57,840 bases of DNA from Thermoflexus hugenholtzii JAD2 (GTDB lineage Bacteria; Chloroflexota; Limnocylindria; Limnocylindrales; Limnocylindraceae). Of the stretch, positions 49,036 through 52,699 are shown piece by piece. The notes under the pieces were generated by a model. It ran no database searches. It had not been told where the DNA came from and saw nothing but the letters and a program-made list of their open reading frames with translations. Within the stretch, counting starts at the first letter, position 1. Every line of letters begins with the position of its first letter. Both the position numbers and the translations under genes were made by a program. The stretch lies in NCBI GenBank assembly GCA_945862225.1, contig CAMAXG010000001.1, positions 1 to 57,840 of the forward strand, written 5' to 3'.

Positions 49036-49050
49036 CTGCGCATAGTAGTA

Positions 49051-50601
49051 CTACGAGGAGCCAACGAGGCTGCGAATGATCAGCATGGCGGCCCCAGCAC
49101 CGAGGAAGAGGTTCAGCAACATGAATCGGCGCCATGCGGCACGTGCCGCCTGATGCGTTGGGCGGCCTGCGATTAGCGGGAGCAGCGAGAGGATGCTCGC
49201 GAGCGGCAAGAGCGCCCCAATGCGCTGGAGTGGTTCGCCTTGCACGAGCAGCAAGAGCCCCGCCACGGCATAGAGTGCGATGGCGAACAGCCCCCCGCCG
49301 CGAACGCCAAGAAGTGTTCCAACGGTCCCAATCCGGCCCCGCCGATCTGCATCAACATCTTGCAACGCTCCCACCACATGGCTTCCCATGTTCCAGAAGA
49401 AGAACGCCGCCAGCGGCGCAATCCAGGCCTGTTGCAGCTCGCCGCCGAGCGCAAGGCCGGCAACTGCAGGGATCACAAAGTGTGTCGCAGAGATGACTGC
49501 ATCCAAGATCGGGACAGCACGAGCGCGGACGAACCATGGTGCGCTGTATGCCGTGGCAAAGGCGATACCGAGTAGGCACCAGATTGGAACCGTAGCTGTG
49601 CCCGTCAGTAGGAAGAGCGCACTCGTAAACGCAGCGAAAAGAAGAAGTAGCCGCAGCGTTGGTAAATCGCCGTTCTGCAGCAGAGCACCCTCAGCACCGC
49701 CCTTCCGTGGATTCTTTCGATCAGTTGCAAGGTCATAGAGGTCGTTGATCCCATAGAGATAGAGGTTGTACGCAACGCCCCACCAGATCACGAGTGGCAA
49801 GAACCATGCGCCAACCGCCTCCCCCGCTCCGGCTGCGAGCGCACCACCCGCAAATGGGAGCGCAGTGTTGATCCACGAAACTGGGCGAGAGGCCAGCAGC
49901 AACCGCCACCAGCGACCCTTCGCTACACGTGCTGATGCTGTGAGCTGCACCGTAAAGAGCACAAAGGCCGCTGCCCAGAGGATGTCCTCGACCGGCGCGT
50001 AGCCCAGCATCACCCCCGAACGTGGCGCGCTGGAATAGTAAAAGAGCTCCGCCGCACACATGATGTTGTCAAACACCAGCGTCAGCCCGAGAAAGATTGC
50101 CACGCTCCAACGGCTTGCCTGGCTGCGAGCAAGGAGTGGCGCTGCGAGGAGTAGTGCCCCAGCCGCAAGCCCTGCAGTGGCCGCAGTGTACTCACCGCCA
50201 ACATTTGCAACCAGTGCCCCGGTACCTACAGCGATCCCAATCAGGATTGCTGCTCCAGCTCTTCGCGCTGAGAGTTCCCCCTCTCGTCTCCCTTCACGCG
50301 ATTTCCCGGTGCTCATCAGCACGACAACAAGTGCTGCGAGCGCCGCAAGGAGCGCGACCTCTTCAATGGGTAGCCCTGCATCAAGAGCGCCCCGCCCAGG
50401 AAGCATCAGCAGCGTTGACGAGAGCGGCGTTGCAAACCAGCCACGCCAGATGCCAACCGCATCGACAAGGAGGAAGGCCACGGTGGTGACGACCGTTACG
50501 GGTAACAGCACCTGTCGCGACACTGGCAGAGAGAACCGTTTGACCAGGCCGTGCACCCCGATCGCCGAAAGCCCGATGACCGCGAGATAGATCGCGCCCA
50601 T
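49051..50601 (-). CDS. Fusion protein: two lycopene-cyclase domains (CrtYc/CrtYd-like) plus a UbiA-family prenyltransferase (CrtEb/lycopene-elongase-like)
   Basis: Two PxE(E/D) cyclase-domain motifs (LPIEEVALL, APVEDILWAA) in the N-terminal ~235 aa. UbiA Asp-rich motifs NDLYDLATD and QDVDADRRGRIGT. ATG at 50601 overlaps the upstream stop (TGATG). Confidence 0.7.
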   Translation of the reverse strand: MGAIYLAVIGLSAIGVHGLVKRFSLPVSRQVLLPVTVVTTVAFLLVDAVGIWRGWFATPLSSTLLMLPGRGALDAGLPIEEVALLAALAALVVVLMSTGKSREGRREGELSARRAGAAILIGIAVGTGALVANVGGEYTAATAGLAAGALLLAAPLLARSQASRWSVAIFLGLTLVFDNIMCAAELFYYSSAPRSGVMLGYAPVEDILWAAAFVLFTVQLTASARVAKGRWWRLLLASRPVSWINTALPFAGGALAAGAGEAVGAWFLPLVIWWGVAYNLYLYGINDLYDLATDRKNPRKGGAEGALLQNGDLPTLRLLLLFAAFTSALFLLTGTATVPIWCLLGIAFATAYSAPWFVRARAVPILDAVISATHFVIPAVAGLALGGELQQAWIAPLAAFFFWNMGSHVVGALQDVDADRRGRIGTVGTLLGVRGGGLFAIALYAVAGLLLLVQGEPLQRIGALLPLASILSLLPLIAGRPTHQAARAAWRRFMLLNLFLGAGAAMLIIRSLVGSS

Positions 50602-51230
50602 CACCGTGCGCGTGCCGTCATGCGATACGAAACGAATGAACCCAACGCGAGTACAAGGCAGAAGAGCAGTGCCGCCAGAACCCAGAAGTCCTGCGGATAC
50701 AACTGCACGAGCCGATCTGTGGCGGGATTGAAGGTCCACGTGCCAGCAGCAAAGAAGAGCCCGTGGAAGAAGGCGAACGTGGCATCGAAGGCCAGCGCGA
50801 AGGCGGCAGCGGCCAGAAGTGCCCCACCAACGATGAGCGCTGCCCCGTCGCGAATGGCCACGCGCAACCAGGCGCGGCGGCGCACCCGGGCGAGGGCCAA
50901 GACGATCAACCCGCCAAGCCCAGCAACTAGGACGGCCCGGAGGAGCGCGCCAACATCGGCAAGGTGGGAGCGCTCTCCCGCCGAGAGGAGTGGCTCGTCA
51001 CCAAGCGGAGCATCAAAGGCCCCGTCCGTGAGGAGATCCCCCACCAGGGCGTCTGAGAGGGCCTCCGCTACCCCCGGCTCCACCCCGAGCACCGTATGGG
51101 CGTCGCTCACCGACAAGAGGGAGTGCACAACTGGGGGCGTAAGGAAGATGGCTGTCGTTGCGCCAATGGCCAGAGCCGCAGCGGCGAGGGCGAGGAGCGA
51201 CCGCCGCAAGAGGCGGCGGAGCGACTTCAC
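50601..51230 (-). CDS. DUF1461 / TIGR01906-like integral membrane protein (the family that includes lipoprotein intramolecular transacylase Lit)
   Basis: N-terminal anchor plus C-terminal TM segments. FHGLFFAAGTWTFNPATDRLVQLYPQDFW resembles the family's conserved block (from memory, not searched). GTG at 51230 forms a GTGA overlap with the upstream stop. Confidence 0.55.
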   Translation of the reverse strand: MKSLRRLLRRSLLALAAAALAIGATTAIFLTPPVVHSLLSVSDAHTVLGVEPGVAEALSDALVGDLLTDGAFDAPLGDEPLLSAGERSHLADVGALLRAVLVAGLGGLIVLALARVRRRAWLRVAIRDGAALIVGGALLAAAAFALAFDATFAFFHGLFFAAGTWTFNPATDRLVQLYPQDFWVLAALLFCLVLALGSFVSYRMTARAR

Positions 51231-51616
51231 GCGTCGGCGAGGACCTGCCCCTGCTCCCACCACGAACGGAGGGAGAGCGGGTCAGGGAGTGGGAGGCCAA
51301 GTGTCTGTGCGGTTGAGATCACTCCGGACTGGAAGTGCTCCCATGGGGCTGCCGCGAGGGTCTCAACGCCGCCGTATCCCGCCTGGGCGAGGAGCTCGTG
51401 CTCAGCGGGCCCCAGGAAGGCGAGATTGAGCAGGAGGGCCTCGTCGCGCCACTCGGCGACGTCGGCGGTAGAGGCGTCAGTCTGGTCCGCCAATGTTTGG
51501 CGGCGGGTTGGGGTTTCGGTGCGCTCCAACAGCAGTCCCGTGGTGAAGATCCCCTGCGCCTCCAGGCGTGCCAAGTGGACTGGCTCGATGCGCGTGAGCT
51601 CTGTGATGGCTGGCAT
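51227..51616 (-). CDS. DUF4332-like helix-hairpin-helix protein
   Basis: 129-aa soluble protein with repeated G(I/F)xT / AGYGGVETL HhH-like segments. Strong purine-rich SD (AGGGGGAG) before ATG 51616. The family assignment was made by eye. Confidence 0.5.
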   Translation of the reverse strand: MPAITELTRIEPVHLARLEAQGIFTTGLLLERTETPTRRQTLADQTDASTADVAEWRDEALLLNLAFLGPAEHELLAQAGYGGVETLAAAPWEHFQSGVISTAQTLGLPLPDPLSLRSWWEQGQVLADA

Positions 51617-51677
51617 TGCTCCCCCTTTCCCTCCCTCGCAGACTAGCGCCTCCCGCGGGCCCGTGGAAAGTCTGATT

Positions 51678-51747
51678 TGTTACAGAAAGATGTAACAGTT
51701 GCGGAATATTGCGGTATCGCAACATAGCGCCCGAAATTTGCGATACT
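51678..51747. promoter_or_regulatory. Operator-like repeat array in the divergent rhodopsin / carotenoid-module intergenic region
   Basis: Perfect palindrome TGTTACA-N6-TGTAACA (51678-51697). Four copies of TTGCG(G/A)nAnn: 51699, 51709, inverted at 51722-51713, and 51738. The last copy overlaps a GATACT -10-like hexamer (51742-51747). Confidence 0.4.
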
Positions 51748-51797
51748 TATCCACAGCGATCCGAAGAGGTCGCAGAAGCAAAAAGGGAGGTCCATTG

Positions 51798-52538
51798 ATG
51801 AGCGCAGCAGATGCCTATCAGTTGGTCTACAACTTTATGTCCCTCGCCATCGCGGCGATGGGCGCAAGCTTCTTCTTCTTCGTCTCCGCACGCGGAGCTC
51901 TGAAGGAGGGGAACCGGATGGCGGTAACGCTCTCAGCCGTAGTTGTGCTGATCGCGTTCTACCACTACGTCCGAATCTTCGACTCGTGGGTGGCCTTCGG
52001 CACCACGGGCGCCCCGTTCAACGAGGCGTATCGATACGTGGACTGGCTCCTGACGGTGCCACTCCTCGTTGCTGAGCTCGTGCTCGTACTCAAGCTCGAC
52101 AAGAAGCTTGAGAGCACGCTGATCAAGCGAAACGTGGTCTATGCGTTCTTGATGATCGCAACCGGCTACGTCGGCGAGATGACGAACATCACGTCGGTTG
52201 ACTTGGCCTCGCCGCGCACCATCTGGGGCGCGATTAGCTCAGTCTTCTTCGTCCTGATCCTCCGCGACCTGTTCGGCGGCATCGATGCCTCGATCAAGAA
52301 GCAGAGCAAGGACATCCAGGGGATCTTCAAGATCCTTCGCGTCGTGCTTATTGCGACGTGGGGCGTCTACCCAATCGCCTACCTTCTTCCAGCAATCGCA
52401 GGCAACCTTGGCCTTACGGCCCAGGACGGCCTCGTGCTGAAGCAGGTCGGATACACGATTGCCGACATCCTGGCCAAGCCGGGCTACGGTCTCCTCATCT
52501 GGAAGATCGCAACCCTGAAGAACGGTTCTTCGAAGTAA
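51798..52538 (+). CDS. Microbial rhodopsin, DTE-motif light-driven proton pump (xanthorhodopsin/actinorhodopsin-like)
   Basis: Seven hydrophobic helices. Helix C RYVDWLLTVPLLVAEL (D82, T86, E93). Helix B AFYHY His. Helix G ADILAK (D223, Schiff-base K227). GGGAGG SD 7 nt before ATG 51798. Confidence 0.9.
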   Translation: MSAADAYQLVYNFMSLAIAAMGASFFFFVSARGALKEGNRMAVTLSAVVVLIAFYHYVRIFDSWVAFGTTGAPFNEAYRYVDWLLTVPLLVAELVLVLKLDKKLESTLIKRNVVYAFLMIATGYVGEMTNITSVDLASPRTIWGAISSVFFVLILRDLFGGIDASIKKQSKDIQGIFKILRVVLIATWGVYPIAYLLPAIAGNLGLTAQDGLVLKQVGYTIADILAKPGYGLLIWKIATLKNGSSK

Positions 52539-52622: not shown

Positions 52623-52699
52623 TGGTCGGGGCGACTGGATTCGAACCAGCGACCTCTTGCACCCCATGCAAGCGCGCTACCAAGCTGCGCTACGCCCCG
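52623..52699 (-). tRNA. tRNA-Pro (anticodon GGG), CCA encoded
   Basis: Hand-folded: acceptor CGGGGCG/CGCCCCG, anticodon stem CTTGC/GCAAG with loop ATGGGGT, T arm GCTGG-TTCGAAT-CCAGT. Confidence 0.9.

Follow-up and report, generated by a model that had tools for sequence, protein, structure and literature searches.

Genes and junctions at the rhodopsin locus

We examined a stretch of 57,840 nucleotides (contig CAMAXG010000001.1, GenBank assembly GCA_945862225.1; hereafter the window) with regard to three consecutive minus-strand genes and a rhodopsin gene that diverges from them. The window belongs to the metagenome-assembled genome (MAG) of a streamlined freshwater Chloroflexota bacterium (1.11 Mb in 77 contigs, 90% complete). 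The first gene of the trio (51616–51227) opens the minus-strand operon and encodes a DUF4332 protein of 129 residues. The second (51230–50601) encodes a Lit-like membrane protein of 209 residues, counted from a GTG start, and the third (50601–49051) a protein of 516 residues, counted from ATG, in which CrtYe-like, CrtYf-like and CrtEb-like parts follow one another (hereafter the fusion). On the plus strand, the rhodopsin gene (51798–52538) encodes 246 residues. A divergent control region (51617–51797) with a palindrome and a 5′-untranslated hairpin lies between the operon and this gene, and a minus-strand tRNA-Pro(GGG) gene detected by ARAGORN (52623–52699) marks the ancestral junction at which, as described below, gene order differs within the genus.

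An earlier note on this DNA, made from the sequence alone, had described the junctions of the trio, and these are exact: GTGA at 51230–51227 joins the DUF4332 gene to the Lit-like gene, TGATG at 50603–50599 joins the Lit-like gene to the fusion, and the rhodopsin ATG at 51798 diverges from the DUF4332 start at a distance of 181 nt. Among the trio genes, only the DUF4332 gene is preceded by a strong Shine–Dalgarno sequence (GGGAGGG). None was found at the Lit-like gene or the fusion gene, which fits coupled translation. The chain is longer than three genes, with mogA starting 15 nt past the fusion stop; beyond a 106-nt spacer downstream of mogA, nrdR and dcd overlap by 4 nt. By a crude gene call, start/stop overlaps of 4 nt or 1 nt occur at 189 of the 596 same-strand adjacent gene pairs of the genome (32%) and at 9 of the 32 such pairs in the window. 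Since about 32% of junctions overlap in this way, two consecutive overlaps are unremarkable and carry no information on stoichiometry, and the idea that such tight coupling signals stoichiometric co-production loses its basis. A promoter scan of the interval from 47.8 to 52.9 kb returned no promoter-like site, and terminator-like sites in the same interval are not commoner than in shuffled sequence.

The rhodopsin belongs to the xanthorhodopsin family of outward proton pumps. It matches Pfam Bac_rhodopsin (PF01036) with E = 7.1e-41, and its closest solved relatives are psXR (9WFA), xanthorhodopsin (3DDL), Gloeobacter rhodopsin (6NWD) and Kin4B8 (7YTB), with E values between 5e-56 and 6e-48. 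The key residues are R79, D82, T86, E93 and the retinal lysine K227, and the DTE motif is present. Gly144 aligns with Gly156 of xanthorhodopsin, the site of carotenoid fenestration, and this glycine is kept in all 20 congeners examined. Xanthorhodopsin-like genes and possible antennas have already been noted in the SL56 group by Mehrshad et al. 2018 (PMC6169038), where the pairing of rhodopsin and fusion is not described, and in a 2026 study rhodopsin counts as a gene that the Limnocylindraceae gained in connection with their habitat (PMC13212565).

Within the divergent promoter region we observed a perfect palindrome, TGTTACA-N6-TGTAACA (51678–51697). Comparison of the eight genomes in the window's clade shows conserved arms around a freely varying spacer, and the half-site TTGTTACA is still found in more distant congeners. 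The palindrome may be the operator of a dimeric regulator, possibly one that responds to light. Just upstream of the Shine–Dalgarno sequence of the rhodopsin gene, the 5′-untranslated region contains a stem-loop with a 6-bp stem (GCGATC-CGAAGA-GGTCGC, 51756–51773). Across 11 congeners, including the genomes that carry the rhodopsin gene at another locus, compensatory double changes occur at five of the six pairs. Two rhodopsin alleles of other genomes are unusual. One, from a congener (locus L023; G004:C1, 6400–7122), is 78–79% identical to that of the window and sits on a long branch, with flanking genes at 85–98%, which suggests that this allele was replaced through recombination or transfer. 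Another (G064:C2:97874–98665) matches in two pieces (residues 1–70 and 68–246) about 45 nt apart, a split that could come from a frameshift, a small insertion or an assembly error.

The fusion protein and the pigment gene inventory

Profile searches uphold the assignments of the earlier note for the domains of the trio (DUF4332, DUF1461/Lit-like, cyclase and UbiA), with the cyclase match scoring around its cut-off. In the fusion, residues 1–120 (50242–50601) make up the CrtYe-like first cyclase half with three helices, and residues 121–232 (49906–50241) comprise a linker helix and the CrtYf-like second half, with three helices in the half-domain. Residues 233–516 plus the stop codon (49051–49905) constitute a UbiA domain, putatively of the CrtEb or lycopene-elongase type, with nine helices. 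This domain scores 63.4 bits against Pfam UbiA (cut-off 34.2), and the fusion reaches 219.9 bits against NF009608 (cut-off 217), a model that is named only "prenyltransferase". Pfam Lycopene_cyc (PF18916, cut-off 27) matches the second half over residues 138–219, with a score of 24.4 bits by hmmscan and of 29.2 bits when the genome is searched, and TIGR03462 gives 31.7 bits for this half (cut-off 39.4). The first half gave no direct profile match. Aligned against the second half by hhalign, it returns E = 0.0095 with the D...PxE(E/D) motifs of both halves in register. The PxE(E/D) motif, which we take to define the heterodimeric lycopene-cyclase family, is present as P78-I-E80-E81 in the first half and as P203-V-E205-D206 in the second, both invariant in 33 sequences. 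In the same sequences the Asp-rich motifs of the UbiA domain (N286-D287-x2-D290-x3-D294 and D415-x3-D419) are also invariant, which argues that this domain is under selection.

Each part of the fusion could be connected to separate genes by tblastn. The first half matches the first cyclase open reading frame (ORF) of a sister-family genome, G043 (37% identity, E = 3e-11), and an ORF of Leucobacter weissii that lies between crtI and a crtYf::crtEb-like gene (E = 0.013). The second half matches the second cyclase ORF of G043 (E = 7e-6) and, at its N-terminus, the double fusion of Leucobacter (E = 9e-5), and residues 233–516 match the UbiA genes that come next in both genomes. The Leucobacter cluster reads crtB-crtI-crtYe-(crtYf::crtEb). 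That of G043 also holds a gene of the FMN-dependent-dehydrogenase family (read as a type-2 IPP isomerase, idi2), a UbiA::GT2 fusion and crtB, an arrangement known from gene clusters for cyclic C50 carotenoids (PMC6669644). Judged by these matches, the window protein is a putative CrtYe-CrtYf-CrtEb-like triple fusion, collinear with crtYe-crtYf-crtEb of C50 producers. As a separate observation, the UbiA::GT2 gene of G043 (C3; L031 8185–11025) carries a CrtEb-like UbiA domain and a GT2 glycosyltransferase in one open frame, and UbiA::GT2 proteins of 545–720 residues recur among the database matches; these may be elongase–glycosyltransferase fusions for C50 carotenoid glycosides.

The AlphaFold2 model of the fusion is a confident single body (pLDDT 85.5, pTM 0.87) with 16 helices, counted as three, one linker helix (residues 112–131) and three, then nine. 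With Foldseek, the C-terminal part retrieves AfUbiA (4TQ4) and ApUbiA (4OD5) at probability 1.0 and TM scores (target) of 0.65–0.71, and in sequence the UbiA domain is 40–42% identical to actinobacterial prenyltransferases of about 290 residues. An exhaustive HMMER search of 1.84 billion representatives found the three-part architecture in only three clusters at 50% identity, all of them relatives of the window gene. The same scan also returned double fusions of the LbtBC kind (376–429 residues) and UbiA::GT2 fusions. With the second cyclase half as the sole query, a word-indexed search retrieved just one close relative. The MAGs that hold close relatives of the fusion are named Candidatus Limnocylindrus or Candidatus Aquidulcis, both freshwater Chloroflexota.

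The earlier note had seen no crtE, crtB, crtI or blh in the window, and our search of the whole genome agrees, with crt matches on other contigs only and Blh nowhere. The genes for lycopene supply would be one polyprenyl synthase gene (contig C11) and crtI-crtB (contig C32). On contig C20 (16658–19185; L082 7659–10186), a second CrtEb/LyeJ-like UbiA gene overlaps a gene for a CrtD-like desaturase by 4 nt. This second UbiA protein is 35% identical to the UbiA domain of the fusion and is found throughout the genus; together with its partner it may form an acyclic C45/C50 branch. The genome profile search finds the sole cyclase domain of the genome in the fusion, and no ketolase, hydroxylase or C40 cyclase turned up in the searches that were made of the genome. 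CruF (PF04240), sought as a third bacterioruberin gene, was not found either. A 287-residue ORF past the crtD-like gene in G004 belongs to no Pfam family. For retinal formation, the RPE65/CCD family has no match in the genome, and Blh (PF15461, TIGR03753) is found neither in the host genome nor in 37 genomes of the genus or 251 of the phylum. As a positive control, the Blh model TIGR03753 scores over its cut-off in 8 of 151 Microbacteriaceae, and tblastn with Blh proteins of Microbacteriaceae against the host genome returned nothing. Since the searches for Blh, CCD and a second cyclase are all empty, the canonical route from lycopene via β-carotene to retinal is not encoded.

Gene order within and beyond the genus

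We compared the order of the locus across 20 congeners. In the majority it reads der-gpsA-tRNAPro-(rhodopsin, opposite strand)-DUF4332-Lit-fusion-(moeA-moaC)-mogA-nrdR-dcd. This arrangement alone proves nothing because the entire neighborhood is syntenic. Four congeners (G019, G011, G036 and G005) read der-gpsA-tRNAPro-DUF4332-Lit-moeA-moaC-mogA-nrdR-dcd, with neither rhodopsin nor fusion at the locus. As in these genomes, the tRNAPro gene stands directly between gpsA and DUF4332 in congeners that carry no insertion. In the same four, rhodopsin and fusion lie back-to-back, about 100–200 nt apart, on other contigs and in at least two contexts; in the window genome it is the DUF4332-Lit pair that separates them. 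The rhodopsin and fusion genes of this paired arrangement each form one clade in their respective trees (96% SH-aLRT each).

Within the genus, rhodopsin was found in 41 of 42 genomes and the fusion in 35 of 36, and the sole absentee of both is the same genome, G029. Its contiguous locus reads gpsA-tRNAPro-(RCC1-like repeat protein)-DUF4332-Lit-moeA, and rhodopsin and fusion are found nowhere in the genome. The gene that follows tRNA-Pro there, in the place of rhodopsin (L075, G029:C15, 2894–4325), encodes an RCC1-like repeat protein of 471 residues. The 3′ end of crtI in this genome (L138, G029:C13) carries an in-frame stop and an internal deletion; crtB is intact, and no crtD-like match was found (genome 78% complete). 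With these data the expectation that the trio is conserved together in relatives fails, as the four congeners and G029 have DUF4332-Lit without a fusion at the locus. The link between the carotenoid enzyme and rhodopsin that the earlier note had also proposed gains from the same comparison, through their co-occurrence, their common absentee and the adjacency kept in the four genomes where they lie at other loci.

A distant clade has 1.8 kb of additional sequence separating fusion and mogA; examined as a possible crt or blh gene, it holds moeA and moaC. Outside the window's clade, both within the genus and in the sister family, these two genes separate mogA from the Lit-like gene or from the fusion. 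They are absent from the window's clade (49036–49050; compare L024–L026 and L071–L075), where only mogA remains, and the molybdenum-cofactor pathway appears to be eroding there.

The two small proteins have a history of their own. The DUF4332 protein scores 45.9 bits against Pfam PF14229 (cut-off 23.2, E = 7.9e-12) and is soluble and helix-hairpin-helix-like; searches for an NCBIfam family and for a solved relative gave nothing. The Lit-like protein scores 64.1 bits against Pfam PF07314 (cut-off 24), with residues 83–183 covering profile positions 73–176 of 176. It stays just under the cut-off of TIGR01906 (66.7 against 74.8 bits) and far under that of the NCBIfam Lit equivalog NF051877 (41.4 against 400 bits). 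In a phmmer alignment with Bacillus cereus Lit (7B0O, E = 4.5e-8; chain numbering shifted by 19 relative to the native protein), all six of the catalytic and conserved residues His85, Val89, Phe149, His153, Phe157 and Trp162, a list that includes the His85/His153 dyad (PMC8275575), are kept. In view of the equivalog and TIGR01906 scores we file the protein as a distant Pfam member with an intact active site and as no equivalog. Lgt and LspA, which act upstream of Lit, are encoded in the host genome, and the Lit-like protein would most likely remodel lipoprotein lipid anchors.

The coupling between the DUF4332 and Lit-like genes (GTGA or ATGA) is retained also in genomes without the fusion at the locus. 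The Lit-like gene is present in 41 of 42 genomes of the genus and in 117 of 121 genomes of the class, representing 33 of 34 genera. DUF4332 stands directly upstream of it throughout the genus and in 11 of 24 loci fetched from other genera of the class, where rhodopsin and fusion are not adjacent. The order DUF4332-Lit-moeA recurs in the fetched loci of the sister family; loci of the remaining families of the class have moeA close to the Lit-like gene and no DUF4332 gene. Since the Lit-like gene is nearly class-wide and sister-family genomes without rhodopsin or fusion share the synteny, DUF4332-Lit is an old resident pair. We regard the two as a translationally coupled housekeeping pair that is ancestral in the order Limnocylindrales, with gpsA-tRNAPro-DUF4332-Lit-moeA as the old order. 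The legend of Figure 1 in PMC9769723 describes a DUF4332 gene in the heliorhodopsin/photolyase operon region of Trichococcus (Firmicutes). This proximity is probably a coincidence because the DUF4332-Lit pair occurs in the sister family without any rhodopsin.

Rhodopsin itself is absent from all 15 genomes sampled in each of two other families of the class, and the components of the fusion were found in only 1 of 24 genomes sampled outside the genus. The rhodopsin loci of six other Chloroflexota genomes have neither a cyclase nor a UbiA gene as neighbor, so that the pairing of rhodopsin and fusion is specific to Limnocylindrus.

Interpretation and known systems

The reading we favor, and consider fairly probable, is that the locus is a composite and not a module: an ancestral DUF4332-Lit pair stands together with a rhodopsin-linked fusion of the C50 type whose pigment serves the pump. 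In part of Candidatus Limnocylindrus, the rhodopsin gene lies on one side of DUF4332-Lit and the fusion on the other. Placed beyond the pair, the fusion would be read through from a pre-existing operon. Lycopene would be supplied by enzymes whose genes lie on other contigs (polyprenyl synthase, CrtB and CrtI). C5 units would then be attached to it by the UbiA domain, at C-2/C-2′ if this acts as CrtEb-type elongases do, before the pseudo-heterodimeric cyclase closes the rings. By homology, such a pathway would end in a cyclic C45/C50 carotenoid like decaprenoxanthin, sarcinaxanthin or C.p.450. The selected unit would be rhodopsin plus fusion, and its product a pigment for the xanthorhodopsin-type pump, as bound antenna, structural carotenoid or chromophore precursor, with general photoprotection held to be less likely. 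Retinal would otherwise be scavenged or produced by an unidentified route. A bolder version, which we consider improbable, makes the fusion the committed step of a chromophore supply independent of Blh, with retinal or an analogue substituted on the ring arising by cleavage of a cyclic C50 carotenoid, or else the source of the first C50 light-harvesting antenna of a bacterial xanthorhodopsin.

Several observations weigh against the composite reading. Known xanthorhodopsin antennas are C40 keto- or hydroxy-carotenoids, and a ring with a C5 substituent may be poorly suited to the fenestration. The C50 chemistry is predicted from 35–42% identity to uncharacterised homologues of CrtEb-type enzymes, and the second UbiA paralogue, coupled to its CrtD-like desaturase, is also present in the genome. 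Co-transcription of the trio is deduced from the overlaps and the missing Shine–Dalgarno sequences. Because crtI is damaged and no crtD-like gene was found in G029, the co-loss in this genome fails to separate a rhodopsin-specific loss from the loss of all pigments. The trio arrangement is retained in three of about four clades of the genus, so that some benefit of co-expression with DUF4332-Lit is possible. Finally, the tree of DUF4332 and Lit, rooted on the sister family, is a polytomy in which one genome with the trio falls beside two with the paired arrangement.

The earlier note had viewed the DUF4332 protein, the Lit-like protein and the fusion as a possible membrane-pigment or rhodopsin-accessory module made in stoichiometric amounts. 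In such a co-evolved module the Lit-like protein would, for example, acylate a carotenoid or the rhodopsin. Both overlaps are real, the arrangement is retained in most of the genus, enzymes of the Lit type do move acyl chains, and the figure legend in PMC9769723 places a DUF4332 gene in the Trichococcus heliorhodopsin operon. We nevertheless regard such a module as extremely unlikely. The Lit-like gene is near-universal in a class whose genomes almost all lack rhodopsin and fusion, and the adjacency to DUF4332 exists in sister-family genomes that lack both. Four congeners keep the coupled pair where rhodopsin and fusion lie elsewhere together, and G029 retains it with neither of the two. The Lit-like protein has the catalytic residues of the lipoprotein enzyme, start/stop overlaps join about 32% of neighboring genes on the same strand, and no glycosyltransferase gene is present at the locus, so that no glycosylated acyl acceptor is in evidence there. 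Very unlikely, too, is a cyclase that acts on lycopene itself to provide β-carotene for retinal, with UbiA as a passenger or acting on another substrate. The fusion does hold the sole cyclase domain of the genome, and crtY and blh are classically linked to rhodopsin genes. However, Blh was found in none of the 37 genomes of the genus and 251 of the phylum by a model that detects it in Microbacteriaceae, no RPE65/CCD protein was found, both halves resemble CrtYe/Yf-type genes of C50 clusters and not blh-linked crtY, and the motifs of a mere passenger would not be expected to be invariant. A crtEb mutant of Corynebacterium glutamicum reportedly accumulates lycopene, so CrtYe/Yf leaves lycopene uncyclised, which we also count against this route.

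More serious, although still doubtful in our judgement, is the proposal that the C50 carotenoid serves purely in photoprotection or in the membrane, that its gene adjoins rhodopsin through shared light regulation or shared gene transfer, and that retinal is scavenged from neighbors. C50 carotenoids are photoprotective membrane pigments in Actinobacteria, and the palindrome conserved between the two transcription units could act on both as a common operator. In Luna-1 Actinobacteria with no blh, crtEb is transcribed together with actinorhodopsin, and these bacteria are taken to be retinal auxotrophs (PMC12422013); Rhodoluna lacicola requires added retinal, as cited in PMC7734400. On the other hand, only the gene of the cyclic branch is linked to rhodopsin, whereas crtI-crtB and the second UbiA-CrtD pair, a possible supply of protective acyclic pigments, are unlinked. 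The linkage has outlasted moves to at least two new contexts, and the antenna fenestration glycine stands in 20 of 20 genomes.

Many abundant aquatic bacteria have a proton-pumping rhodopsin and no known retinal-making gene. Limnocylindrus combines three predicted functions in one gene that has been kept beside rhodopsin through rearrangements, in a phylum other than that of Aurantimicrobium minutum (see below), and its genome is small enough for an exhaustive search for the missing retinal step. Rhodopsin and fusion thus offer a compact two-gene system for asking whether C50 carotenoids feed or decorate xanthorhodopsin-type pumps. If the fusion were indeed the committed step of chromophore supply or the source of a C50 antenna, the two-gene cassette would amount to a self-contained photosystem for a 1.1-Mb genome. 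As a by-product, we describe a Lit-type protein with an intact predicted active site and a constant DUF4332 partner that is conserved in one order of Chloroflexota. The locus is also a reminder that start/stop overlaps in streamlined genomes chain unrelated genes and are no proof of modules.

Lit of Bacillus cereus (7B0O; PMC8275575) is a lipoprotein intramolecular transacylase, an enzyme that turns diacylglyceryl lipoproteins into their lyso form. With it the Lit-like protein, a putative transacylase, shares PF07314 membership, the six aligned catalytic or conserved residues and a genome with Lgt and LspA. It differs in its origin from Chloroflexota instead of Firmicutes, in scoring under the NF051877 and TIGR01906 cut-offs, and in the coupled DUF4332 gene that always precedes it in Limnocylindrus.

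The gene order of the fusion, two cyclase halves and then a UbiA-type elongase, is that of CrtYe/CrtYf/CrtEb in Corynebacterium glutamicum and of LbtA plus LbtBC in Dietzia sp. CQ4, and the partial fusion of a cyclase half with the elongase is already known as Dietzia LbtBC (PMC6669644). Unlike these systems, Limnocylindrus carries all three in one chain of 516 residues with an extra linker helix (seven plus nine helices), and its gene stands apart from crtE/B/I, attached to a rhodopsin gene. The identity between the actinobacterial enzymes and the fusion is only 35–42%.

Salinibacter xanthorhodopsin, Gloeobacter rhodopsin and Kin4B8 resemble the window rhodopsin in family, in the DTE motif and in the glycine at the position of xanthorhodopsin G156. 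In contrast to these antenna-binding pumps, the only cyclic carotenoid available to that of Limnocylindrus would be the predicted product of the fusion. The haloarchaeal LyeJ-CrtD-CruF genes for bacterioruberin offer another parallel, as the coupling of UbiA and the CrtD-like gene on contig C20 resembles the lye-crtD pair; here CruF is missing from the matches, and the UbiA-CrtD pair of Limnocylindrus is not linked to rhodopsin. Opsin-linked control of a lycopene elongase is known from Halobacterium.

The closest functional parallel is Aurantimicrobium minutum KNC, like Limnocylindrus a streamlined freshwater planktonic bacterium, which has a xanthorhodopsin-like pump, lacks blh and crtYc/Yd, and possesses crtYe/Yf and crtEb (Nakajima et al. 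2020, PMC7734400). It still makes retinal by an unidentified route, for which the authors propose cleavage of a cyclic C50 carotenoid (PMC7734400); its gene pattern is shared by most Luna-1 Actinobacteria, which have been interpreted as retinal auxotrophs (PMC12422013). A. minutum belongs to the Actinomycetota and carries these genes separately, whereas in Limnocylindrus, a member of the Chloroflexota, their predicted counterparts are fused and linked to rhodopsin. This physical linkage makes a stronger case for a functional tie between the carotenoid enzyme and the pump.

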